A stretch of 63,725 bases of DNA, counting the filler, from Perkinsus chesapeaki ATCC PRA-425 (lineage: Eukaryota; Protista; Perkinsozoa), in the NCBI GenBank assembly GCA_013115145.1. It is 9 parts of 9 records of this genome, joined end to end, with 100 filler letters (N's around TTAATTAATTAA, not from the genome) between each part and the next. Parts side by side here need not be neighbours in the genome. Positions count along the whole stretch, not along the records: positions 47,691 to 59,522 come from JAAPAO010000836.1; 8 more parts are not named here. One strand, written 5' to 3'. The notes beneath the pieces were generated by a model, which had not been told where the DNA came from, did not search any database, and saw only the letters and a list, made by a program, of their open reading frames with translations. A program made the position numbers and the translations under genes. This document shows, one piece after another, positions 22,246 through 63,468 of the stretch. The stretch's first letter is position 1. Each line of letters opens with the position of its first letter.

Positions 22246-23481
22246 CTAATATCTCAGCCAAGCAGCCATGATGGCTGCCCCGCGTGCTACAACTCTATCA
22301 TAATCAGCATAACGACTAGGTCGCTTACCATTGAAGAAGTCCTGCACCATAGACCTCAGTTTGGGTATGCTCGTGGAATCACCGACAAGAAGGACAGCAT
22401 CAATGTTTCCTTTATCAATACCCGAATCATCTAGCACTCGTTCGACTGGCTTCATAGTATTGAGAAATAAGTCCAAGTTGAGCTCCTCGAAACGTTCACG
22501 GGTTAGAGTGCAACTGAAGTCGATATCTTCATAAAGAGCATCAACCTCAATGGTGGCTCGGAGAGAAGAAGACAGAGTCCTCTTAGCACGCTCGCATTGG
22601 ACCCTAAGACGCTGCATGGACACATCGTTACCCTCGATAGATTTGCCTTCATTACAATGTTTAAAATGTTGTATGCAGTAGTCTAGTACACGATTGTCAA
22701 AGTCGGATCCACCCAAATGAATATCCCCAGCGACAGCTTTAACGTCGTAAATCTGATCTTCGACAGTTAACAGAGAGACATCGAACGACCCTCCGCCCAG
22801 GTCATATACAAGGACGTTACGCTCAACCTCCTCTCCTCTATCGAAAGCATAGCCTACAGCTGCCAATGTAGGCTCAGCGTATATACGCAAGACATGGAGA
22901 CCGGCAATCTCAGCAGCATCTTTGGTAGCCTGCTTCTGGGAGTCGTTGAAGAATACTGGGACGGTAACAACAGCCTCGACAACGGCACATCGTAAGTAGG
23001 CTTCCGAGATCTCCTTCATCTTGCGAAGAATCATGGCAGAGATCTCCTCCGGGTGAAACTGCTTAACCTTGCCTCACTCGGTAACCTCAATCAATGGCTT
23101 GTCGCCGGGACCACAAACCACCTTGAAAGGCCACCTCTTGATGTCGTGCTGAACCAATGGATCAGAGAACCTGCGCCCTATTAGGCGCTTAGTTTCATAG
23201 ACGGTGTTCTTGGGATTAGTAGTGACCTGTGCCATAGCAGCCTCACCGACAACTCTACCACTATCAGTAAAGGATACATAAGACGGAGTAATGAGGTTGC
23301 CGAACTCGTTAGAGATTGTCCTAACTGAGTCACCAACCCAGGCAGCGACACATGAGTAGGTAGTACCAAGATCGATACCAACAGGAACTTTCCTCTTCTT
23401 CACAGCAACTTCCGGCGCTGCATGAAAGCTACGTCTGTCAGATATGGGCATATTGAAGCCGTTAGTGATAGTAGAGTCCAC
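22246..23481 (-). pseudogene. HSP70: HSP70 ATPase-domain-only copy with in-frame TGA
   Basis: [45 protein letters not shown] (TGA at 23074-23076), DLGGGSFDVSLL, GDIHLGGSDFDNR, degenerate LLVGDSTSIPKL; stops right after the NBD; intronless. Confidence 0.85.
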
Positions 23482-23519
23482 TTGTAATATTATTCAAGGT
23501 AGCCTTGTGCAAATCTGTG

Positions 23520-24316
23520 ACAGGTTAGCGAAACAGACTAGCTAACAGTGCCACAATAGCACAATACCAGACCAGGTTGAGCTTCGTGAACTGTCAGCAC
23601 AATACGCATGTCGCCTCAAAGTTGAGCGTCTGGTCGGTACAAAGGCTATCTGTTTTCAAAATGGGTATTGCAGCGGGCATAGGCCAGGAAGCCCAGGCTC
23701 CAACCTACTGCTTAGAGATGTTCATCTATACATGGCACATTCCATACAGAGCCACAATAGACGATGTCGTCTAGCTGAATATAATCCTGCTGCTAGCGAG
23801 TGGTCACCTTAACGAATATTACTGCCTTGATTTATCGGCGAATAGAACGGTCCCAGAGAAGACCGTTAAAACTTTGGGTTATCCGCCCACTGTGACTGAC
23901 TTGGAAACACAACACTACTGGGTTACGCAGCCGTGAAGGAACTGACACACAGCCTATGCGTACAGCCTACCTACCCTTCGACAACCTCCCACAGAACACC
24001 AATGGCAATCGTAGAACTGCTGATAAACAGTCCTACCGACCGTTGCCTTTACGGCAGCACTGAGCCTAGTCCACCTAAGGCGGTAGGCAGTATGGCTCCA
24101 GCAAAGCTAATAACAGAGTCGAAGGGTAAATTGGCAGGCAGAGGGGCAGGGCAAGGTAAAATTGAAGGTGGTTTCGGGATTTTCCCGAACACACCGGATG
24201 CCCGAAGAGAACAAAAGGACATTCTTTACGAATGTGATGGATAGAGTTAAAAAAGCTATACACAGTAAAGTGAATACCATTAGCACTCTCTGAAACTGAC
24301 TTATACCGCCATGCAA
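23520..24316 (-). CDS. Possible small multi-exon membrane protein
   Basis: Hydrophobic micro-exons (LMVFTLLCIAFLTLSITF; FAGAILPTALGGLGSVLP; STIAIGVLWEVVEG) with GT..AG introns. Confidence 0.3.
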
Positions 24317-24366
24317 GTAACAAGACTCTACGGGATTCTGCTCGACAGCAGATATCCGTCCAGCGC

Positions 24367-25476
24367 CTAGTGACCAGGCGGAAAAGGGTTACGGTAGTTA
24401 GAACCATTGTCGTTAGCAGAAGCAAACGTATGGTTAACATCTGACAAAGATACCACCTCCGAGAACACATCAGACGAAGGATCTCTCTCACCCCTGTGGT
24501 GGGACTCATCAGCTCTCATACAAGCAAAGACGTCCCTTAAGGTAGCATTATCACCGAGCTGGTAATAGTCACGCGCCACGAAAGGCGCAGCCTCCTTGGT
24601 GAACTCGGGAACTTTACCTAAACCTCAGCAACTTGCATCAGACTTCCCTCCGCTGTTTACCTTCATCGATGCATTTAAGGAGGTTAGTATAAGTCTTAAC
24701 GGCTTCCTCTTCCAAGTAGCCAACAAATCTATGGTTGAACTTGGGAGCCAGCAAATACAAAAGGCCGTAACCCCAGAAGAAAATGCCCTGGCTGACCAGC
24801 ACTAACCCTCGTAGTAGTGGACCGGGCTGCTTCAGAGTTAAGGCTATCATCAGATGCATGCGCTCGTTCTCCGCCTCCTCGAGCAATGTGTGGATCCAAC
24901 CATGGTCTCTTTCCATGTTACGAAGACTGTTTAAATGCCTCACCATCCCGCCCACCATACCGGGAACGGCAGCTACTGTCTCCAGGAACACGAGACGGCG
25001 CACCCACAGCTTAGCGTCGCGCCTGCCGAACTTGTACCCGGACAAGGTGTCGAAGGTCTGTCTCAAAGTTTGCACCGAGTAGTAAGCAGCTCGGTCTGTG
25101 AAGTTCTTCGGAGGGTAATGGGTTTGCTCTATGTCCTCAATCTCCGATAGCTCCCATATCGGATGGGGAAGCGAGTGGTCTGAATGAACCTCCTCAATCT
25201 CTGATGATGAAGGGCTTGACCCAGGGGCCGGCTTTCGCTTGAAATGTACGGCGCCTGATAGACTCAAATGAGGCACACACTGATCCAGGGCAGCTTACCA
25301 GCGACATTAGAGCCCATCTCGGGTGCCTTGAGTTGGGCAGTTGAATTGCTGCTTCTAGTAGTGTTCAGCATTCTAACACTTATCATGCTCAGATGACCAG
25401 CTACCATTGGCGACTTCATCAATACACTTGATGATGCACCAGTGAGGAAGTGAGGATGTAGTTTAGGAGCCAACAT
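24367..25476 (-). CDS. AOX: Mitochondrial alternative oxidase, copy B (3 introns)
   Basis: FLETVAAVPGMV, LEEAENERMHL, VGYLEEEAVKTYT, RADESHHR/DVNH; presequence-like N terminus. Confidence 0.95.
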
Positions 25477-25659
25477 AGTTTAGGGAACAGTAATATCCAC
25501 TACAGAGGGATTACAAGCCATATTGGATGACAACGCGACAGCATGTGAAGGAGAGAAAGCACTTTAGCACAGTAATACAAAAGTCAGTAGAAGACGATGA
25601 TGAGGCATCCCGCCTCAGACACAGCCAATGGTGGCTAGAAACGTGCAGAAGAGCGGCGG

Positions 25660-47690: not shown

Positions 47691-48304
47691 CTGTTCTAAT
47701 CTGAGAGTAATCCTAAGCTTTTCAACATATGAAACTGCCTAGCGGAGCGAAGCGATCGCTACATTTGTCCTAAGGCGGAGCGAAGCGATTCATGTTTCAC
47801 ATTTTGTTTTCTTCATCTCCAAAGCTTTTCTGCTGGCATTTAGTCATCAATCTAATAGTCCTTTGTCTCTCTATACTATATCGGTATGCAGTAGGGCCTC
47901 AGCCCTGACTGAGTGGGCTTACGTGAGCAGTAAACGGGTCGAAGGTCTTCGCCCGGGTGGCTAAGTGCCGAGCGGTCGACGGATACCAGAGTCATGTTCG
48001 TTGAAGAAGTTGTTTTAAATGACTACCAGTCGACGAAAGAAGCCCACTGGTCGGTATGGAGCTACTAATACGAGAAGTCGAATGAAGGCGGCTGCTATGG
48101 AGGCGACAGGAGATAGCAGCCCTACTACAGCGTCGGAAAGGGTAAGGAGGGACGGGCAACGTCGCTTATTGGACTGAGCTTTGGTACAGCTATCAGAGCT
48201 CTTTCTTGGTCTTAAATGCTTTATACAGTTCAAGAAGAGTACACTATCAGTATCTCAGTTCTATATAGAGGTTAATACTATATCTGAGGTTAGGGCAGGA
48301 TGCC

Positions 48305-49354
48305 TTGTGGTGTACCGTTACTGCTCAAGGGCAGTTGAGTAATATAAAAAATGATGGTACTAGTAGCTTTTATTGGCCCTTATATATTATATGGAATAGC
48401 GTTCAATATGTTGACTGTTCTCAGAGGGAGGCCCCCAGTGTCGATGCCCTCTTCCATATGGTGGCCAACAGTAACCCTAACCGAACAGATGCCTCCCTCT
48501 ACGGTATAGTAGCTAAGGGGGCCACCGACAGTGTCAAGTCCCCGCCGCCGTCTATCGACATTGAGGCTCCTGGGCGCTCCGAGGACAGGCCTAGCGCGGC
48601 ATCAGTGACGGACAGTCGAACCGATACCGCGCCTACCGTAGCTGAAAAAAGGAAGCGGGGTAGACCGCGGAAGGAGGGGATTGGCGGGCCAATCGAGCCA
48701 GCTGCCAAGCGGCCGAAGGCGGTCGTGGACAGGTCTGTCCATGAGATTAGAATTACGTTATCATCACTGCGGTTGCTACTCGCTGAGTACTCTAGGCGGC
48801 TTCGGTCTGGTCAGCCGGTGGACTTTGAAGAACTTCGGACGGCAATTGGGGAGAGGATGGAGCCCTGGGACCTGTCCGCGATCGATCTTGAATATATCGT
48901 CACTGAATTCACTGCTATTAAATATAGGCCTAGCCTGGGGCTGGTACTCATGGAACGCCCTGGTGCATTTCAACCTTCTAATAGGGCAGTCAATCGAGCT
49001 GGGATATCCGAGGTTGGAGCGAGGCTTAAGGAACTATGGAAGGAGCACAGGACGAACACCCCCCTGACCGGAGAGAATGTGGCTGCTGATCGCATAAGGG
49101 CAAACGGGGCGGTCCGATGGCTTCGTGGATGCACTACGGCAAGCACTTTGAGCTCTACAGCTTGGGACTTCTGGGCATCGTCGACGGCGGTGGCACCGTC
49201 ACCGATCAGACCCAGCGGCATCACGAGACTGGCGTCCCTGAGCGCGGCTGTGATGGGCGATCTTAGTCCATATGGTTCGGAAGGCGGGCAGAGGTTCTCG
49301 ACAGGGATGGTGTCTCCGGTGGTTGGTGGTGGGATATTCGAGCCGATATTCTGA
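48305..49354 (+). CDS. Hypothetical nuclear protein with AT-hook
   Basis: Long ORF containing KRKRGRPRK and PAAKRPK, followed by a helical region. Confidence 0.5.
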   Translation: MWCTVTAQGQLSNIKNDGTSSFYWPLYIIWNSVQYVDCSQREAPSVDALFHMVANSNPNRTDASLYGIVAKGATDSVKSPPPSIDIEAPGRSEDRPSAASVTDSRTDTAPTVAEKRKRGRPRKEGIGGPIEPAAKRPKAVVDRSVHEIRITLSSLRLLLAEYSRRLRSGQPVDFEELRTAIGERMEPWDLSAIDLEYIVTEFTAIKYRPSLGLVLMERPGAFQPSNRAVNRAGISEVGARLKELWKEHRTNTPLTGENVAADRIRANGAVRWLRGCTTASTLSSTAWDFWASSTAVAPSPIRPSGITRLASLSAAVMGDLSPYGSEGGQRFSTGMVSPVVGGGIFEPIF

Positions 49355-49474
49355 GGCTTCATTGAGTTGACTTGGTCATTGCAGCCGACTCGTATACTAG
49401 ATTTAATTAGTAACCCTTCTAAGGGGCATGTTGCAGCACTCCTCCTTATTGGCAATACCATTACACTGCTGACA

Positions 49475-52400
49475 ATGGAGCAGCTTATGTCGCTTGGTTG
49501 TCGTTGTGTTGAGCTAGTTGTTGATAACGTGGTGCAGATTGATTATTATAATGATCCCCTACCTGCCCTTCGTATCTAGCATTGGGGCTTCTACCAAGAT
49601 ATCCCTCTGTCTCTTCGGCTCAGTGGTGCTGCTCGTCATGTTCGTAAGGCAGATCCTTAAGCGTAAGGAGATCAGAGTTAGTAAGCCCTCAGCACGGCGG
49701 TGGCATTCCGATCCCGTCCTGGTTAGATACGGACAAATGGGTCCAGGTGTCGCCGGCGACGGCCAAGAGCAGACCGGTCCGGGTGGCCGTCATCGGCTCT
49801 GGAGTCAGTGCAGCTGCTACTTGGTCAGCGCTTCGCTCCGTCGGATTTTGTCGTCGTATTTTACTATTTTGTCAGTCACTACACTCGCTCCCTGTTCGCC
49901 GATGATAAGGAAGTGTCCCTCACCGTGTTCGAGATGGGCGCTGGCAGCGCCGGACCGATCGTGGACTTTGATGGAAAAAAGTAAGGTGCCGGGATCGAAC
50001 TTGAGACCTATTGTACATCGGGTTTCCGGTTTCCATCGTTCTCCATACCCCAGTGGATAACGTTTTTCATTGGGGCAGGGAGAGCCGATCGACTTTGTAA
50101 AAAATGGTTCCACTTGAAATGATTTTCCGAATCGATTGTTCGAGCCCATCCCATATTGCCCTGCGCAACACTGTCCTGGTAGTGGAGCAAAGGAACTTGA
50201 GAGTGAGCTCATCGACGTCATTAGAAAACTTCGGCTGTCTGCTTTGAGGTGAGGTTAGGTACGAAGCCGGTCACTCGATCATCGCTGACTACAACCAGAC
50301 GATCAAGCGATTGTGCCTCAAGTTGGGCGTAACCCTCCGATCTCTGCTGCCCGGCAATCCTAGTAAGCCGCGGCCGGATACGATTGTGTGCAGCTGTCCC
50401 CTTCTCCCAGGCATTATGCTCCACAACGGTTCGTATCCCTCATTCCAGTCTATGGGCAGGGCTCTGTGGGATATGTTATCATCAGCGTGGCGCTATGGTA
50501 TCCAGAGCCCCATTGAAATGAGACAAACGACAACCGGATGTAGGAAGCAGTTGCTGAGCTAGGTTGGCCATTGCATCTGTACAGGTGTACTTTCCTTCTC
50601 TAATATTTACCTCCTACAGCAGCACGGATATGTCTATGATGAGCCAATGGAGCTGCTGAAGGGCATGGCTGCTGATGGAGATGACTTCACCAGCATTATC
50701 GATAAGGAGGTAAGTGTTGGTAGGGTGATTTAGCCCCAGCAGTTGGACAGTGTTGCTAGTGTTTGCCGTAGCCTATTACGGACTGAATGAAGTCGATGGG
50801 ATCGATATGACTAATACTACAACTCCGCTGTGGCACTGCTGCGGCGGCAGCTGGGTACTGGATTTCGCATTACCGTAGCAAGCCAGTGGCGTTTACATAT
50901 TATCTGCACCCATCGAAGTCGGCGAATTTTTCTCTGGTGCTCGACTAGCAAGACTTGGCGAGGAGCGGGTTTTGTTCATCACAGAAAATTGTCCATCATC
51001 ATACGGGAGGAGACCCGCTCGAATGACTGGAGTCCAGAATGGGGATGTGCAGCTCGTGACATGATTGATAATATCTTTGAAATTACCTGTATCATTTTGT
51101 CTGAGCTGTTCGCTTTCTGTGATACGAGCTCACCTTGCCATCTTTGTCGAACTACGAATTCTGTGCAAGGAACCCAGACCGGCTCGCCGAGCCGGGCTCG
51201 GACATCTGGATGTTGATGACGATTCTAGGACGCAATTGGATCAGAAGCTTTCCTCCACCCAAGAGAAGGCAGATTTACCGCCTCCAAGGATTGTTTCGTT
51301 ACCGAGCTTATCCCCCCGTAGATTAACCGGTATTAGAATACTGGCGATCGGGATGTCCCAACACCCACTACTGTTGAGCACGCGCTCTCCTTCGATTATT
51401 GTATTTCTCTTTACTATTATCAGGCCAGAAGTTACCTTATCAACGATCGTTGCATCAAAGCCCCTCTGGTAGATGACATCTGCACTGCTAGTAATAGCAT
51501 TACCCTCGCAGCGTCACGGCGTCACAATTGGTTACGCAGGTCTTCGCTATCTTTATGGTTTGGACTGCAAGTCTGTTAATGGTCTATGTGCCAATATCGC
51601 CATGGCCGATATCGAATACAAGAATCTGTTCACACCTGTCGGGGGTGCAGAAGCGGTAGGGATTCTCAGTGGTTAAAGTTCGCAAATTGCGGAGCTAGTT
51701 GCGGAGGGCATACTCTCACTCTACTAACCCTCTGTGCGTGCGTGCGAATAAATCACCCAGCTCGATGATCTAGAGGGGTTATGATCACAACCTTTGCACC
51801 AATCGATAGCTCTTACTCTGGGGATACTAGGAAGAATACGGAAAGTGGGTTCTGATCATATCTTGAAGGTTAGCGGGATAAAAAATACTTTTCTGCAGAA
51901 AAATGACAGGCCTTGGGATCGAACTTGAGAGCATCTAACAGAATCTACTGATGATTCGCCGAGCTCCGTCCCTTTTCAAGAAAGCCTAGTATTAATTGGT
52001 TGTTAAGTAGTTATAAAGTAATGTAATTATATAGAAGTTCCAGTAGTAGTAAATATTAATACAGTAGTAGTTAATATTAGTACAGTAGTAGTAAATATTA
52101 ATACTCGGGCACCAGCTTACATCGATTCTTCAGGTCACCGGAGCGCTGTTGGATGACAGTGGAGCTAAAACAGTTAGCGGTCGAAGGATCACTGCTATCT
52201 CTCGAACCGAGGAAGGCGGGTTCATGCTCAATGGAGATGATGAAGCCAATGAGTTCGATGCCGTTGTCATAGCGATGCCTGTGGAGAAAGCGGAGAAAAT
52301 CGCTCTGAAGGGTGGGGCGGAGATTAATTTTTCTTGTCTTTATTTTGGATGGTCAGATTCCGACGGTAAGAGTAGCAGCCTGTTTGATACGTCCAGCTGC

Positions 52401-53474
52401 AACTGCGAGACTAAGACGATTTACCAGCATTTCGTGCAGGGGACAGTCAGTCCGTCTATAACGAAGGTGTAAGTTGAGGCTCTATAGCGCGTTCATTATG
52501 GGAGATCCCGGGTTCGATTCCCGGCCCTGGCTTTTATTTCCTGGAACTATATGTTCTTGTTCAGGGCTGGCCGTGTACCAGTACTTGTGTCGACCACTCA
52601 GACGGCTGCGGACAACAACCTTCCCTGGACCTCTATTGAAGCTGCAGTAGGGAGCTTTGGGGCTAGCTGTTGTTATGTTGGTAGTAGGTCCCTGTTGGTG
52701 CCACTGAGAGGGATGCTGAGACGTTACTGGCCGAGGCGAGCTGTGGGAAGGTGTCTAACTGGAAGGTTACTGCACAGGAGAAGTTGGGCAAAGATGAACT
52801 GCAGAAGCTTGTTATGAGGTAAGACGCTGATGATAGCACATAAGCATCGACGTTACGAAGGCATAGTCCTAGGAATAATGGGCAGGAAGCCTATAAGGAT
52901 GTAGGCAATAATACGTATTATTGTATACTTATCGCCTTGTACTATAAGGAAGAGCTAAGTGTGGTTCGATACATTACTGCATATAATAACGTAAACCAGA
53001 AATCGCATCAGAGCTCATTGGGCTATGTAAATATAAATTGATTGTACTAAGTGAGCTGTTTTAAATGAAAGCTTAGCAACTAGTCTACCGTACTTCATAA
53101 GCAATGTGGATTAGCCGAGCCAAATGCAAACGACTATTGCCCACGGTTTTCTGACACCTCTAGCTATCCTTATTCCCATCAGTCTCCCTGGTTCCCCTGA
53201 TCCCGTCATTGTCGACACTCATTGTCCAACCTTCCCCGTTAACGATAAGCTGCCTCCCTTCAAGCTATCAGATGGTATATTCAGTACAGCTGCCATGGGC
53301 AGGACCGCTGCCGATATGGAAATGGAGTGCATTGGAGCTAAGAACTCGGCATTGTTGGTCCGCAAGTACCTAAAGGCGAGGGGCCTTATTGAGGCGGAAG
53401 ACATTCCAGCAGCTCCCGTTGAAGAGAAGGAGGAGGAGGAGGAGGAGGAGGAGCCAGTGAAGCCGCTGGAGTAG
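49475..53474 (+). CDS. PCYOX1: Prenylcysteine oxidase-like FAD oxidoreductase, multi-exon; start approximate
   Basis: VRVAVIGSGVSAAAT (FAD motif), VFEMG, DGKK|YEAGHSIIADYNQTIKRLCLKLG (cf. YEAGGSVIHPLN), LRYLYG..LFTPVGG, FDAVVIAMP, AADMEMECIGAKNSALLV (cf. SAMEMSAIAAHNAALL); poly-E tail. Confidence 0.8.
49987..50008 (-). repeat. tRNA-derived B-box-like relic in a PCYOX intron
   Basis: Minus strand GGTCTCAAGTTCGATCCCGGCA then a T tract; lies in intron 49981-50257; shares 16 identical nt with the copy at 51909. Confidence 0.5.
51909..51932 (-). repeat. tRNA-derived B-box-like relic in a PCYOX intron
   Basis: Minus strand CTCTCAAGTTCGATCCCAAGGCC followed by T-rich sequence. Confidence 0.5.
52041..52104. 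repeat. 21-bp tandem repeat x3 (intronic)
   Basis: cagtagtagtaaatattaata, three copies, the middle one with two substitutions. Confidence 0.9.
52478..52538 (+). repeat. Internally deleted tRNA-like relic in a PCYOX intron
   Basis: GGCTCTATAGCGCG...GGAGATCCCGGGTTCGATTCCCGGCC then TTTT; perfect T-arm (CCGGG/CCCGG) but no anticodon arm. Confidence 0.6.
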
Positions 53475-53658
53475 CTGTTTATACTGTTTAGCATCATCAT
53501 TAAATCACTGCTATTGTAAACCTCTTACTGTTCTATAGAATCCTTTATCAGCTGACAAGAAGTTTCTAACACACGAATGGTTTTGGGCAGGGGCGCGGTG
53601 TTGGTTAATTTTGTGGCGAGTGACGACGATTGATGGGAAGGATTGTTTGTAATATTGC

Positions 53659-56544
53659 ATGGTGACGACCCGCTCTGCTTGGGCCGCACGACGACTGTTA
53701 ATGTCTGGTAGGCTATTTTTGTGGCGCGCGAGAAATGCCTGTATGGTTTTACAATCAGATCCTCTAGGGGACCCTCCCCGAATCGCCTCTCCGCATTTGC
53801 CGGTGCCTCGAGTGATGGACTCGTCGCCGTCCAGCACGTGTTCGGCGAAACGGAAGAGTCCCGATAGTGAAGGTCTGTGGGAGACTAGGGGCTGCTAGGA
53901 TGCTCGAGCTCAGATGAAAGTGCAATGCCAGCCAGGCGTTCGGCTCGACTATGTAGCTTTGAAAATAGCGAATCCAACAGTAGCAGCCCAGGGGAGGTCT
54001 TGGAGAGGGCGACATGCCTGTCCCAAGGTGGTCTGCTGATGACCGGCTGGTGGTCAATGGATGATTGTTGTAGATAGCAGCGCGACTGCGGCGAGCGCAC
54101 CGCCGCCTCAATACGCTTTGGGGCCGCCATTGCTCCCCATCACAGAGAAGGGGGACTTCACACCACGCCCTGGTGAGATGCTTGTTACGTCTGTCTCTTT
54201 TGTATTTCTAACGAGTTTTCATTTGGCACCCGAAATAGCCGTCATTGGCGACAAAAGGAAGTCTCTCGTGGGGCACTCGATGACGTTGGTTGTTGTTTTT
54301 CAACACGCTTTCAATCGAACTGCGCTACGAATTGATCTAAGGAGGCCACCACAGTGTCGGGATCGCCTTCTGTCTTAGGATTCGTCGGGCTTGTCAACCT
54401 CGGAAGCACCTGCTACATGAACGCAGTCATCCAATGCCTACATGCCATATTGCCTCTAGTGACATACCTTCTGGGAGGGTGAGGGCGTTGAGGAAATGCA
54501 AGATTGCAAGATTTACCTTTGTCGTATCAGGGAGCACGAGTTGAATGAAACTAATCCTCTGGGAACCGGTGGGGACATATTCCAAAGGTGCGATCAGCTT
54601 GCTTTGGGGAAGGCGGTATCTCGCATTTCAGCTTCGCAAGATTGCTCTCGAGCATGCGGTTAGCGTCCAGCTTGGAGGCCATTGTGCCGAGGGAATTTAA
54701 AAAAGCGATAGACAATCACATGGTGGCGTTCAAGTGGGATACTTGCTTTTGGAGAGCTCGAATCGGTTTGCAGGGGCACCGGTATCCAGCATGATGCTGC
54801 TGAGTTCGCCACGGCACTGTTGGACAAGTATGCGAGGACGGTGGTGTCGTGCAGAAAAGGCGGGTGTCAGGCTCCACGAGGATCTCAATCGGGCAGCGAT
54901 GTCGAGTGGCGAGCCACCAGAGACGCCGGAGTGTACCATAGAGATGAGTGAAGAAAAAGGGATTGACAGGATCGCCGCAGAGTTCTGGAAGTAGCCGGGA
55001 GTTGAGCCATGGGGCGGTATGGATTCTGGTAGAGCCCAGCTGGCCAAGAACCAGTCTATAATTGTTGACCTCTTCCAGGGACAGATGCGCTCGGTCTTTA
55101 AATGCAGTTCCTGTGGGCATTCCAGGTGGGGAGGTCTCCTGGTTGGGTTGTCAAGCTCCTCCGCTCAGAGTGGTGTTTGAAGCATTCAATTCCCTTATCT
55201 TACCAGTAGAGGACTTCCGCGGGAAGCCGTTGACTGACATTTACGATTGTCTTCGAGAGTTTGCCCGTCCTTCGGATCTGTCGGGGGACAACGGTTGGTA
55301 GGCAAGGCTAGCCTGCAAGGAATGCCTGGACCGGCAGCCGGCAGGTACTGCGCGAAATGCAGCTCCTTATCGGACTCGACCTGCAACACAACACTGTGGA
55401 AGCTGCCGGGCATTCTAATGGTGCAGCTAAGACGATTTAAACAACTTAGTCCGACACGGTGGAGCAAAAGCAGCCATCATGTAGGCGGTCAGTCGGTGGC
55501 TTTGCATAGCATAAGACGGGCGTCTGGAGTATAATAGAAGGAACACCGAGGAATCTTCAGCGAGGATACCATCAGAAAGCGCTTCCTGGGATTTTTGACA
55601 AGATGATGCCCCATAACACCGTTACAGTTCCTCCCAACATTAAACAGTTCACTAATGCTAATAACTTCGCGGGCGTCACCCTGAGACTCTTCGTACTTAC
55701 GGCCAATGCCTATTCCACGTACTTGTCTAGGAAAAATGTACACTTCTTATACTGCTCGGGGGTCCGCTAGAATTGCCATCGGCACAATAGTGGTTCAGCT
55801 TAAGTATCCGGGACCAGCCTTGTTGCATAAAATCCTCGGCGTTACAGGTGCATTACCCCACCAAGGAGCCTTTGAATCTGGAGAAGTTCGTATCTAGGTC
55901 CCACCAACGGGACGCACCAACCTATAGATTGCTTGGAGTTCTCCGCCACAAAGGCCTCATGTCGTAAGTCTTACCATAGCTGTATGACTTGGAATCTTCT
56001 ACACGGTAGAGGAGGACACTACACCGCTTTTGTGAATCACGACAAGACACTGTGGGACCTGAAGGGCCATGAAAAGCCGATCGATCTATCGCTGCAGACA
56101 CCCCGGCGGGCTCCATTTCACATGGGTAAGATATCCCCTATTGACAGGCCTTGTATGGGCGGTTTAGGGCATCATATGGACCCGGAGAGCCCAATGTCCA
56201 GGGTAGTGCTTGGGTTGGTACCGTGTTCCCCTAATGGTAAACAGCTTGCTATGTTGACCATGGTGATGTTGTGTGCACTGTAGGGTGGTGGTTCTTCGAC
56301 GATTCTACTGTTCATCCTCTACGGAAAGAGGCCCTCGTCGATTCCCGAGGTAAGTCAAACGCTCTGATGGGTTACACTGAATGCGCTAGATGCCTACATA
56401 CTATTTTTCGTTCGATCGGGGACACCAGTAGACCACAAGATGATCCCATCTCAGCGACATAACAAACCGACGGATTGGCCTCATGCTTTTGATAATGTTG
56501 CGTCACCGTCGTCATCGTTGTCATCGCCAGAGGAAGGGCTATGA
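53659..56544 (+). CDS. Ubiquitin-specific protease (peptidase C19), multi-exon
   Basis: Cys box GLVNLGSTCYMNAVIQCL; QHDAAEF; SIIVDLFQGQMRSVFKCSSC; YCAKC..LWKLPGILMVQLRRF; His box GGHYTAFV; WWFFDDSTV. Confidence 0.92.
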
Positions 56545-57798
56545 TGGGCAGTTCTGTTTAACCTTGCCGACTAGCAGCTACTGTTGTCGATTGGCTTTCT
56601 CATTCTGCTGTATTCTTTATTAAAGCAATCACCAGGTTGATTCATTTACTCAGTACCAGTGTTGCGTGGTATAGTCACATAAAGTTGGGAGAAGAGCGGT
56701 ATGAAAAGGTTCAGGGAACGAAACACAAAAAATCTCCGCAGTGCGCAAGGGAAGGATGAACAACCGCAAGACGAGCGAGAGAACAGCGCGCTGCAACATC
56801 CGATATCTGATGCGATTTTGATATAGCGGTGGCCGGAGGAGCATCTTGCTAAGCTTCTATGTGACCACCTACAACTGTTCTTGGTTCTTCGGTATGTGAT
56901 GCCTCATTAGTGAACTTTGGGCCATTTATATACGTACTATGACGCCAGCTATGGGGCCCTCTCAGACTGCCGAAGATGATGGGTTAAGAGATGCCTTAAG
57001 CAATACTGGTGAGTATCTATCGTCCACGTGTGTAAGATACCATTTAGCTCCGTTCGCTTTAACTTTCAATTTGCCCTATTTATTTTCGCTCAGGCGTGGA
57101 TGAAGAACTAGAAAACCAATTAGCCAGTAAGGGATCGAACGCTTCCTACTCTACGGCCTCAAAATCTCGTTGATTTCAGGAAGTTGTGATGAAGCTCATG
57201 GGCCAGCTCCATATGGAGTTCCGCGTGAACTTAAGAAGACATTAGTTTCCGAGAGTGAGCCATCTACCGCTGCTTGCATGGTCATTAATATTGCTCATCC
57301 TTTCAGTAATGATTGTAGACGAAGATAGCTTTAATATGAAAAGTAGGTCCAACTGAGAAGCGCTGTGATGTGGAAATCAGATTTTATTGGTAGCACGAAA
57401 GGCCCTCTTGGGTACCATCTGAACTCCGCTGACACCCGCTTACCTAACGAGAGTGATGCCCTAATCAGTGAGGGTAGATCCTAGGCCCGTCGCACTGGTA
57501 CGGTAATCTGCTGCTCAGATTCTCTGCTGGATGGAAATGCTATGAGATCACACGCTTCTATGTCATCTACAGCATTCTACTCTACTGAAGACGCTGGCCT
57601 AATAGGAGGTACGAAACTGTTGATTCGGCCACTTTAAATTAAGCTGATCCTCAGGTACGCAGTTCTCCTTGACGTCAGAGCAGCTCGGGCTTGGACAAGT
57701 GAATCCAGGTGAACAGCCCAGAAGTTGCGGTGTAGTTGAGCCTCTCAGGTCTCGCACATGCTCCTAATATATCGGATATGATATCACAGAGGTCCGCG

Positions 57799-58343
57799 AT
57801 GAGCGACAGGGGTAGGCTGATGGCTCCATCGTTATCGAATGGTCTGCCTTCAGCTAATGAGAAGACGAACAGGAAGACGAAAGCAGCAAGTAGAAAGAGT
57901 GAGAGTGGAAGTAAGTTATTCCCGTTGGAATGGTTTTATTAGCTCCGTTACGATCTTCTATATGTGCATTTGGCTTACTTGTCCGAGGCTGTTTATCTGA
58001 AGTTTATTTAGTGCTTTGTGCTTCCTCATACGCTCTTATCCACGTTGGTCGTCTGCGTTCCCGGCCTTCCGTTTGCAGCATTTTATCGCCAGCTGCTCTC
58101 ACTTCGCCTCCGTCCCCGCGCCGATTTCGGCAAGTATTTCCGTGCACATTTAGGCCCCGAGAGTACTGCTACCCCTTCCAATAGGAAACCGAAAGGAAGG
58201 AACAGGAAAAGTGAGTCTGTTTGAGATCTGTGTGGATACCTAGTGGTCTTTTCCCTCAGGTTCGGCTGGTGCCAGCTCCGCCAAGTCGACCGGAAAGCAA
58301 TCGAAAGGGCGCAAGAGGAAGGTCAGCGGAGACGAGGATCACG
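57799..58343 (+). CDS. K/R-rich upstream exons predicted to splice into the Rep ORF
   Basis: Three exons (about 57799-57898, 58079-58210, 58260-58343), all with phase-1 GTGAG donors and pyrimidine-rich acceptors, mutually in frame and in frame with the acceptor at 58600-58601 in the Rep ORF. Confidence 0.5.
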
Positions 58344-58519
58344 GTGAGAGCGACTGTGTTACATAGGAGGCGTTCTCGCTTGGAAAATCCCTGCTGTTTT
58401 TCAACGAGGAATCCCCATTGGTGTCTTTATATAGTTTTAACGAAAGAATAACTGATGATCGCTTCGACTTTACTCTCATGAACCTCTTATACCACAGCCG
58501 TTAGTGCTTCGGTTTTCGT

Positions 58520-59522
58520 GTGGGGAGCGTTCTTATACGCAATAATGTAGAATCTATGTTTATGGTTATCTATGAGGAACGACTAAGCGTGAGTGTTTCA
58601 GAAAAACCGGACACTATCGAAATCAAGGACGCATCCTTGGAAGAACTGAAGCGCAAACAGTCACGGTCATTCCTATTTACATGGTCGCACACTGAGGACC
58701 CTGACAAGGCCAAACCGTGTGACATGGAGAAACCAGAGATCAAAAAGATTATAGAGCAAGTCATGGGAAAAGACTTACTCTACTTTTCCATCTTCTTTGA
58801 GAATCACAAAGACGGAAATCGCCATGCCCACTTTGTCTTGAAATATGCCAAACCGAAGCGCTGGAAGCTCATGGCTGACCAGCTTCGACGGGAATATAGA
58901 ATGTTTTGTTCGGTGAGCGTTGCTGAAGACAAGTCCGGGGCTAAGTCCTGCATGTATCCGGTGTTATTTGGGTACTGCTATAATACCAACCCGGAGAAGT
59001 CCCTGTTCGATGTTGACCTCGAACCTTATCTCTCACCTGACCATCCTGCCCCCACCACAATCGGCCTTGAAAAGCCTCGGGTGATCTCTCAAGCGAAGCG
59101 CGTCCGTGCCATGAGCAATAGCGCGGTTCAAGCGTTCGTGATTAAGGCTAACATTAAGACCGAGAAGGAGCTCTACGCGTACGCCAACCGTGATCCCGCT
59201 TTAATGGAGTTTGTGTCGAAGCAAGGCGACTTTCAAGGAGTGGTCGATAAAGCATGGGAGATACATAGAGCCCCAATGGAGCTGATAGAGGATAGGAAAA
59301 CTCCACTGGAGAAGGTTAAGGACTGCCTATCAGCTGAATGCAGCTGTAGCTATTTTGGGATGTGGGCTGAGAAGGTTTCTGTTGTGGTGGAGAGGAACCT
59401 AAGAGAAGAGGGAGCACAGCAGTTTAAGGATGACATTATCAGGAATTTGCAAGTTGGTAGATCGAAGCAGACCAACATTCTGGTATATGGGAGGGCTTCT
59501 AGTGGTAAGAGCGCGATATTCA
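58520..59522 (+). mobile_element. rep: HUH endonuclease plus SF3 helicase Rep (CRESS/parvo-like endogenous element), 3' truncated by gap
   Basis: Motif I SFLFTWS; motif II ENHKDGNRHAHFVL; candidate motif III GYCYNTNPEK; Walker A in SF3 context GRSKQTNILVYGRASSGKSAIF. Confidence 0.85.
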
Positions 59523-59622
59523 NNNNNNNNNNNNNNNNNNNNNNNNNNNNNNNNNNNNNNNNNNNNTTAATTAATTAANNNNNNNNNNNNNNNNNNNNNN
59601 NNNNNNNNNNNNNNNNNNNNNN
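59523..59622. other. Artificial contig spacer 7
   Basis: 100 nt of N containing TTAATTAATTAA. Confidence 0.97.
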
Positions 59623-59730
59623 AATACTTTCGCCTATTAACTATCCCTATCTTATTGTTAAATACAATACTTTCGCCTATTAACTATCCCTATCTTATTG
59701 TTAAATACAATACTTTCGCCTATTAACTAT
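59623..59730. repeat. 43-bp tandem repeat x2.5
   Basis: aatactttcgcctattaactatccctatcttattgttaaatac starting at 59623, 59666, 59709. Confidence 0.92.
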
Positions 59731-60109
59731 CACCACTTTATTAAAAACACAGTACTTTCTCAACACTACTTTCACGTTTATATTACATCATCCTTATATC
59801 CCAATACGTTATATAATGTGAACTAACGGAGCGACGTACCATACATTACTCCTTTATTTCACATTCTCATTACCACCATATAATTCACATTCTCCTCTAT
59901 ATTACATCTTCCTTAAATGCAAGTGTGTTATACCATCACATACATGTGTATGTAACACACGTTAAGTGCTGTTTTACAAATAAAGCCAATGCGGTGATTA
60001 GACTGTGAACTATCCGACTGATGTACGATAATTGATTCCCGTTTTGAAACACAGCATTTACCTTACACTATTGTCCAACTGCCAACAAGGGAAATCGAAT
60101 TCTCTCACC

Positions 60110-61104
60110 AAGTCGCCGGGCCAAATTTCCTATTCCCGTCAGTATTATTACACAGAAAAGAATCCCTCCTGAGAGTCGTCATATTGCCCATTGAAGCAGC
60201 TCTTATTGAAGTACTTCCACACATTAACCAAATGACCTGAAAAGAAAATGGAACCCAAAGGCAAGTACAAGTATCATGGTGAGAGCCACGTAACGATATT
60301 AACGGTTTATCGGTACCCGAGAAAACTTTTCCAGGCGGCAACCTGCGCTTACGTTAACGGTTAATTCCTTATCCCTTGAATTTCTATCAATGCATAGAAA
60401 GAGAGAGTTTATACCGCTATCAGAAATTTTACAACAAAATAGTCCTCAACGGAGTAGAAAATTGCTACAATTACGCAACACAGTTAAAGAGGTCTCCATT
60501 TCCTGATACCAAACAAACACAGTTAAAGAGCTTTCCATTTCCTAATACTAAACAAACACAGTTAAAGAGCTTTCCATTTCCTAATACTAAACAAACACAG
60601 TTAAAGAGCTTTCCATTCCCTAATACTAAACAAACACAGTTAAAGAGCTTTCCATTTCCTAATACTAAACAAACACAGTTAAAGAGCTTTCCATTTCCTA
60701 ATACTAAACAAACACAGTCAAAGAGCTTTCCATTTCCTAATACTAAACCAACACAGTTAAAGAGGTCTCCGCTTCCTGATACTAAACCAACACAGTTAAA
60801 GAGGTCTCCGCTTCCTGATACTGAACCAACACAGTCTCCCTATTCCCCAATTACTACCAGCTTCCTTCTTAGAATCCTCATCACTATCCAAAGCATCATC
60901 ACCCCGTAAAATCTGGTCCCTATGGTCGTCATACCATGCCCGTTCCTGTGGATCGCTCAACACTTCATTTGCCTCGGTGATAAGCTGGAACATCTATACA
61001 GGGGAACTGCTAAGGATGAATCACACAGGGAAGTAGGTACCTGTGTGGCCTCGTCAGAGTTCTGGTTTTTATCAGGATGCCATTTCAAAGCGAGCTTGCG
61101 GTAC
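60110..61104 (-). CDS. DNAJC21: DNAJC21/Jjj1-like J-domain protein (partial, possibly disrupted)
   Basis: [43 protein letters not shown], spliced to [28 protein letters not shown] then TAA. Confidence 0.75.
60478..60829. repeat. 39-bp minisatellite x9 inside the DnaJ intron (60237-60857)
   Basis: Unit acacagttaaagagctttccatttcctaatactaaacaa with variant terminal copies. Confidence 0.95.
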
Positions 61105-62700: not shown

Positions 62701-63468
62701 ATGAGATTTTCTACTATTTGTTTGTTGATAGCCTCTCAGTCTGTGCTCAAGGCTGTTGCCCAGCCCGTTGGCAAGTATGTCTATGTCGAAGAAGATGGGA
62801 AGTATCGCCTTGCCTTCGATGTCGACCAGGGTGGCCGTGTCTCGATCAGCTTCGTTACCCCATCCGGTGGTTTCAACGATGGTAGTTATCCACTTATCCA
62901 ACAAGACAAATCCACTTTTGGTGTGAATATTTTTGTTGGCTTAAACTGGTACATCAGACTAGTTTTCATGTACGCCAGAATGCTGCCAACGTACAGTGGC
63001 GTCTTTCCCCGTCTTGGTGACCTCACTACCTTCACTTTTACATCTGATAACGGTTTGTATGTCAAGCTAGGTGGCCGAAGGCTGCTGTTGCACAAAGAAA
63101 CCTCCACTTTACCAGTGGGCGAGTTCCAGTATACTTTGGGTGAATTCCCGTTGGTCTGGTTTCACATAAGCTACAACATTCACCCCAATGGCGAACTCGA
63201 TACGAAGTTCCTCTGTACGGATATCCTCGCGGCCCCTGTATCATTCAACCTCACCAAGAGCGATAAGCCGGAGCAGAATGAGACCTATTATTTGTCTCCC
63301 CCCGATAGAGTTGATGAGTTGAAAGGTGCGATCAATCACGTTTGCCCGGGCTTCCCGTTCCAGCCAAACGACCTAACAAGCATTGTCTTTGAGAATGAGT
63401 CCACGATCCTCATCACTCTCGGGGGAGACCTGTTACGCCTACGCAAAGGGGGATCGACACCTCCATAG
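62701..63468 (+). CDS. Secreted lineage-specific protein with two tandem ~120-aa domains
   Basis: Signal peptide MRFSTICLLIASQSVLKAVA; PVGKYVY...DLTTFTFTSDNGLYVKLGG and PVGEFQY...DLTSIVFENESTILITLGG. Confidence 0.75.
   Translation: MRFSTICLLIASQSVLKAVAQPVGKYVYVEEDGKYRLAFDVDQGGRVSISFVTPSGGFNDGSYPLIQQDKSTFGVNIFVGLNWYIRLVFMYARMLPTYSGVFPRLGDLTTFTFTSDNGLYVKLGGRRLLLHKETSTLPVGEFQYTLGEFPLVWFHISYNIHPNGELDTKFLCTDILAAPVSFNLTKSDKPEQNETYYLSPPDRVDELKGAINHVCPGFPFQPNDLTSIVFENESTILITLGGDLLRLRKGGSTPP

Follow-up and report, generated by a model that had tools for sequence, protein, structure and literature searches.

A probably domesticated mobile-element Rep gene of Perkinsus, with some eleven predicted host-style exons joined to it

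Background

Rep proteins of the HUH-SF3 type form a covalent tyrosine link when they nick single-stranded DNA, and act as ring-shaped helicases in its unwinding. The nearest precedent for the gene described here is enRep-Myo9 (enRep-M9l) of guinea pigs, in which, according to the available part of its account, a 3'-truncated dependoparvovirus Rep is fused to a recognisable myosin gene, with a cytosolic protein as the product (bioRxiv 10.1101/572735). Elements with terminal inverted repeats that carry both a Rep and a transposase are also described, in the accessible part of one source, as a geminivirus-like transposable element of Tuber melanosporum and as DENSOV_HM in Hydra (PMC3198968). Two further groups encode HUH Reps: Replitrons, whose Rep has no fused helicase, and Helitrons, whose helicase is of type SF1B (PMC10288648, available part). 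The HvSm DD34E elements are presented without a Rep in the available text of their description (PMC7325037). In a literature search short of most subscription journals, we found no published account of the Perkinsus gene and, beyond PMC3198968, no description of an element combining HUH-SF3 and Tc1 components.

We have analysed a window of 63,725 nucleotides (the whole stretch of DNA considered here) from Perkinsus chesapeaki. It contains a gene that is, in our judgement, probably a domesticated mobile-element Rep. Like enRep-Myo9, as far as the available part of that account goes, it has a Rep region joined to host exons (here by prediction), is kept across species and is under purifying selection (bioRxiv 10.1101/572735). 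Unlike enRep-Myo9, it keeps both nuclease and helicase motifs, its N-terminus, encoded by an array of exons, is predicted to be disordered and matches no family, its host is a protist, and it is known here from sequence alone. With AAV Rep68 and papillomavirus E1 it shares an HUH-type N-terminal domain followed by an SF3 helicase; it differs from parvovirus NS1/Rep and from E1 in an extra CxC..W and a C-terminal CxxC, and in being chromosomal and multi-exon. As in Replitrons and Helitrons, the Rep gene is eukaryotic, chromosomal and intron-bearing (again by prediction). A Replitron is ruled out by the SF3 helicase on the Rep, and a Helitron (SF1B, Pif1) by the match of that helicase to SF3.

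Results and discussion

The Rep exon and its family

The last exon of the gene lies at 58602-59522 on the plus strand and encodes an HUH nuclease and an SF3 helicase with retained catalytic motifs and predicted activity. It is ended by the contig end just past Walker A. The assembly gap that follows (59523-59622, without strand) has removed about 145 helicase residues, as judged from the P. marinus ORF call P0152, together with the 3' flank. Just past this gap are a 43-nt tandem repeat (59623-59731, 2.5 copies) and a 39-nt repeat (60477-60835, 9.2 copies), whose adjacency to the Rep exon across the gap is unproven.

The motifs comprise motif I FLFTW (58670-58684), HAH (58823-58831), two tyrosines (58955-58957 and 58973-58975), CxC (59339-59347) and Walker A (59489-59512). 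FLFTW, HAH and the two tyrosines align with near-invariant family columns. The exon is matched by 151 representatives, and their alignment conserves E..H.H, two tyrosines, CxC..W, Walker A and a C-terminal CxxC. Of the SF3 motifs, Walker A is within the window; Walker B and motif C are seen in the P. marinus orthologue only, the 3' end here being missing.

As the only query, the window protein had no significant match in Pfam or among PDB sequences. Pfam REP_ORF2-G2P was found in 10 of 25 family members, none of them the window protein itself, and the family profile matched the AAV Rep40 helicase with an E-value of 1e-11. The last exon of the P. marinus orthologue gave a structural model with a pLDDT of 90, for which the best Foldseek matches were AAV Rep68 and papillomavirus E1 (E 5e-14, 11-16% identity). 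In the Atlas ranking, eukaryotic Rep clusters came first and parvovirus NS1 next.

The predicted exon chain

The original prediction was of a Rep spliced in frame to three host-style exons. The GTGAG donors it proposed (57899, 58211 and 58344) and the AG acceptors (ending at 58078, 58259 and 58601) are all present, the three introns are all phase 1, and the frame joined from the ATG at 57799 gives 412 open codons up to the contig end at 59522, with a protein identical to that quoted. The Rep exon is also 100% identical to part of the database protein FOL47_010610 of P. chesapeaki, which maps back exactly to the window as 12 exons starting at 56951 with 11 introns, all of phase 1. This exon model is probably ab initio. 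The second and third joins agree with it, but the number of exons had been underestimated: a predicted in-frame 42-nt intron (57812-57853, plus strand; donor rank 2 of 105) was overlooked, as were seven more predicted introns further 5', so that three exons become part of a larger gene. For this reason the ATG at 57799 is probably internal to the gene rather than its true start.

The 5' part of the gene (56951-57811, plus strand), as given by the database model and the splice parse, would consist of eight mini-exons encoding a predicted disordered N-terminus: 56951-57008, 57094-57126, 57180-57254, 57307-57342, 57381-57467, 57519-57608, 57655-57708 and 57749-57811. The predicted introns among them are 38-85 nt long and all phase 1. 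The next exon (57854-57910, plus strand) is basic (..KTNRKTKAASRK) and ends at donor 57899 or 57911. The predicted intron that follows (57899-58153, plus strand) has four in-frame versions, from donors 57899 or 57911 and acceptors 58078 or 58153. The version first proposed (57899/58078) keeps the frame and is one of these four; the database model uses 57911/58153. The best-scoring donor is 57911. The exon end at donor 57899 is identical at 25 of 36 positions to the exon end at donor 58211, a likeness that suggests exon duplication and favours 57899 historically.

A second predicted basic exon (..SNRKPKGRNRK) occupies 58154-58210 on the plus strand (58079-58210 in the version first proposed) and is followed by a predicted 84-nt exon (58260-58343, plus strand) with the basic cluster KGRKRK, which is NLS-like, its function being inferred. 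Finally, a predicted phase-1 intron of 258 nt (58344-58601, plus strand; acceptor rank 3 of 127) precedes the Rep exon. The sequence supports an intron-bearing Rep with a basic, NLS-like linker, the splicing being predicted.

The N-terminal 220 residues are predicted to be disordered (pLDDT below 50), with basic clusters at their end, and have no match among protein families. The P. marinus models also have a low-complexity N-terminus, of 260-380 residues, and the gene models of both species attach this long N-terminus at nearly the same point. The two N-termini are weakly collinear near the Rep (score 59, reached by 2 of 500 shuffles), a likeness that is possibly compositional. When the upstream exons were searched by tblastn with the N-termini from P. 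marinus, all matches had E above 0.2.

Synteny, selection and paralogues

The original prediction offered two origins, a domesticated viral gene or a genome-resident HUH-SF3 transposon. The word 'domesticated' is supported by selection, by dead tandem paralogues and by synteny with P. marinus. Upstream of the Rep gene is a ubiquitin-specific protease (USP) gene (P0169; 53743-56545, plus strand), which served as a synteny marker. P. marinus has this Rep gene too, at 57-58% identity, and on two contigs its neighbour is again the ubiquitin protease; the P. marinus USP is 76% identical to that in the window. Synteny was read from accession order and shared contig sizes rather than from aligned P. 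marinus DNA. In P. chesapeaki the USP and Rep have consecutive accessions (KAF4653276 and KAF4653277). The 625-kb P. marinus contig has the USP EER00830, the Rep EER00829 and two paralogues (EER00828 and EER00827), and the 85-kb contig has the USP EEQ99967, the Rep EEQ99969 and one paralogue (EEQ99970). Two Rep paralogues of P. olseni also carry consecutive accessions. Of four taxa, P. chesapeaki branches off deepest in the part of the published phylogeny available (PMC9550989).

At the protein level, the orthologues are identical at 62 of 76 family-conserved columns compared with 102 of 216 others (Fisher p=1e-7). The neutral chance of a stop-free frame at 58% identity is about 1e-3 if indels are ignored. 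Both orthologues retain every one of E, H, H, Y, Y, CxC and the K-S/T of Walker A, the HxH pair is found in none of the seven other Perkinsus paralogues, and the helicase is absent in several of these. The four Perkinsus Reps form a single long-branched clade with a support of 100 (quick tree, 56 rows). Since the gene is at the same site in P. marinus and has preferentially kept the family-conserved positions, the comparison of sequences indicates that it is vertically inherited and selected, and not a mobile copy. Synteny, selection and diverged duplicates together are the pattern expected of a domesticated gene.

Six of the Perkinsus Rep paralogues (P0005, P0006, P0013, P0028, P0151 and P0153) share an N-terminal coiled-coil-like stretch, mostly followed by CxxCxxC; a profile of this N-terminus had no match in the window. 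A separate single-exon gene in the window (62701-63468) shares 38% identity with P0010 (FOL47_002236) over the N-terminal half of that protein, the C-terminal half being a degenerate Rep nuclease. This may be a fused gene model and a sign of another Rep paralogue locus.

Relatives of the Rep and the question of mobility

Scans of plasmids and phages gave no matches to the Rep, nor did three scans of viral contigs, which used short exact patterns of limited reach. An endogenous Parvoviridae or CRESS-DNA virus was rejected on the basis of the three viral-contig scans, within their limited reach, and the 11-16% identity to viral Reps. At the Perkinsus locus no capsid gene or hairpin ends were seen (the 3' flank is outside the window). 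Prokaryote genomes yielded a single broken copy, on one MAG contig (L032) that is otherwise eukaryotic-looking; a 115-nt perfect inverted repeat interrupts this copy (L032:6238-6472). Another broken Rep copy is near an ORF with MACPF and Hint domains (L021:1-1941).

Among distant relatives, a DD34E Tc1-type transposase is found beside the Rep in 12 of 31 metagenome loci, representing about eight distinct elements (7 of the 12 loci served to build the transposase profile). Pfam DDE_3 confirms 10 of 13 submitted transposase ORFs, and in the L012 transposase 34 residues, counted by hand, separate the second D from the E. Among the 11 of 31 loci that were looked at for repeats, inverted repeats lie close to the two ends of L012 and L029, and direct repeats at the termini of L008, L017, L022 and L025 hint at circles or at copies in tandem. 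Units of 3-6 kb comprising Rep and DD34E genes with inverted repeats can be recognised in L008, L012, L013/L014, L016/L017, L019/L022, L024, L025 and L028/L029. Long hairpins lie between the Rep and transposase ORFs of L017 (94 nt) and L028 (110 nt).

The 'viral' part of the original prediction is thus not shown: the scans of viral contigs (of limited reach), phages and plasmids gave no relatives, and those relatives whose context is known adjoin Tc1-type transposases. These two observations make a mobile-element origin of the Perkinsus Rep likely, of whichever donor type. The Perkinsus gene belongs to the same Rep family as the Rep-plus-DD34E elements (L008-L029). It differs from them in being fixed, with no transposase or terminal inverted repeat seen (the 3' flank is missing). 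A position nested among the transposase-linked Reps was also rejected, as a branch with a support of 98 separates them: five transposase-linked rows fall in one clade and the Perkinsus Reps lie outside (quick tree of 56 rows, with a long Perkinsus branch).

The second origin that had been offered, a genome-resident transposon, is also unsupported for the present copy, as the orthologous site is fixed and repeats of at least 16 nt are absent from 56500-59522 (the 3' flank is in the gap). In a variant of it, an intron-rich Rep transposon, with or without a DD34E transposase on its 3' side, would be present as a fixed 'master' copy that still mobilises itself or non-autonomous copies. The intact catalytic motifs agree with this, as do the 12 of 31 family loci with a DD34E transposase, some of which have terminal inverted repeats; Replitron-1 is a precedent for introns in Rep transposases, at least in the available part of the source (PMC10288648), and the 3' flank of the Rep is outside the window. 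We nevertheless consider it unlikely. The gene is at the same site in two deeply split species, the window has no transposase match and no second Rep, none of the named P. marinus neighbours is a transposase and the next models there are Rep paralogues, and Perkinsus is outside the transposase-linked clade.

Elsewhere in the window, inspection by eye revealed an RT/RNase H-like ORF followed by a tyrosine-recombinase-like ORF (36682-39129, DIRS-like) and a gag/zinc-knuckle/protease-like ORF (45431-47590).

Strength of the splice signal

Splice matrices were trained on introns of the window outside the Rep gene, 30 in all after two doubtful ones had been left out. The contig joints of two small runs supplied 16 of them, and the USP model, which is similar in kind to the model under test, supplied 14. 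With these matrices, the sites of the database model hold 11 of the first 13 places among the 105 GT donors and 8 of the first 10 among the 127 AG acceptors. A parse that is blind to reading frame recovers 7-8 of the 11 model introns exactly. Its score is 55.9, compared with a maximum of 30.8 in shuffles (n=60, all 60 beaten) and 10.0 on the reverse strand, and 7 of its 10 exon lengths are divisible by 3 compared with a fraction of 0.32 in shuffles. It used acceptor 57942 for the first join and, for the last intron, missed donor 58344 by taking 58322, which has an equal score (7.3).

It had been argued that three consecutive in-frame joins are unlikely by chance. We compared this with 300 dinucleotide shuffles of 57799-58601 per setting. 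Three open in-frame joins occurred in 219 of 300 shuffles with any GT/AG and in 100 of 300 with GTR/YAG; they are so common that frame alone is weak evidence. Consensus-grade donors make such joins rare: 1 of 300 shuffles had them with GTRAG/YAG, and none of 300 with GTGAG/CAG all in phase 1. The intron phases of the USP model (53743-56545) also come in runs, three of phase 1 and then seven of phase 2, so the feature 'all phase 1' is not special to the Rep gene. Runs of equal phase may reflect the mode of intron gain in Perkinsus.

Two same-species runs, X1 and X2 (presumed to be RNA, about 4 million contig letters each), cover 9 and 10, respectively, of 30 bins of 47691-59522. Their contigs show spliced joints in neighbouring genes and have zero coverage from 53616 on, the USP included; they are therefore neutral on Rep splicing. 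Spliced contigs also cover two tandem genes at 24638-26556 that resemble alternative oxidases by eye. Over the same genes in 47691-53615 and 22395-25719, X1 and X2 include identical contigs as well as contigs that are less than 90% alike. These runs therefore contain another set of alleles, paralogues or a further species.

The Rep exon could instead be a gene of its own, starting at or near 58602, with the upstream exons a separate low-complexity gene or a non-coding transcript that gene finders have fused to it. The joints to the Rep exon are predicted rather than observed, the last intron is long (258 nt compared with 40-52 nt in 23 of 30 training introns), the alternative donor 58322 would shift the frame, and P0152 has an ATG of its own as its start, shortly before the Rep. 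Against this, the first in-frame ATG past the acceptor lies beyond motif I in the window, the upstream exons continue in frame without a stop as far as a good donor, the acceptor is third of 127, the long N-terminus is joined in the models of both species, and the USP gene also has introns of 206 and 367 nt. Two separate genes are thus, in our opinion, quite improbable. The Rep could also be a fragment of an ssDNA virus, endogenised recently and given its splice signals by chance, with which the parvovirus NS1-like fold and profile matches and the frequency of loose GT/AG joins in shuffles would agree. This reading is very improbable and is largely refuted by synteny: the P. marinus orthologue is under selection, the splice signal is far above that of shuffles, no capsid-like ORF was noticed, and identity to viral Reps is 11-16%.

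Conclusions

The explanation that we favour, with reasonable though incomplete confidence, is that this Perkinsus gene is probably a mobile-element Rep domesticated by its host, which predicted splicing would link to about eleven exons of host style. A Rep would have entered the ancestor of the sampled Perkinsus species and then lost its mobile context. It may have acquired a host promoter and a disordered, basic N-terminus made from symmetric phase-1 exons, the basic exons probably serving in nuclear import, and tandem copies would later have lost the HUH metal site. From knowledge of the family, the protein would nick single-stranded DNA and unwind it.

If the Rep is domesticated, one candidate role, suggested by analogy and held somewhat below an even chance, is to control rolling-circle elements related to it, by policing or servicing them; the paralogues that are dead might then, at a guess, serve as decoys or as poisoning subunits. 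Almost equally probable is a part in the replication or recombination of host DNA. We tentatively propose that an active nuclear nickase-helicase from an undescribed eukaryotic Rep family, together with an array of dead sister copies, may constitute a genus-wide host system that acts against related mobile DNA or in the cell's own replication.

The published co-opted Reps that we found are truncated or lineage-narrow mammalian cases, or expressed insertions without a shown function. Here both nuclease and helicase motifs have been retained across the deepest split of the sampled Perkinsus, with a many-exon N-terminus and dead tandem paralogues. The gene provides a case in which the recruitment of an entire HUH-SF3 enzyme by a protist can be tested. 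It also points to a broad family of Reps in eukaryotes, some of which travel together with Tc1-type transposases.
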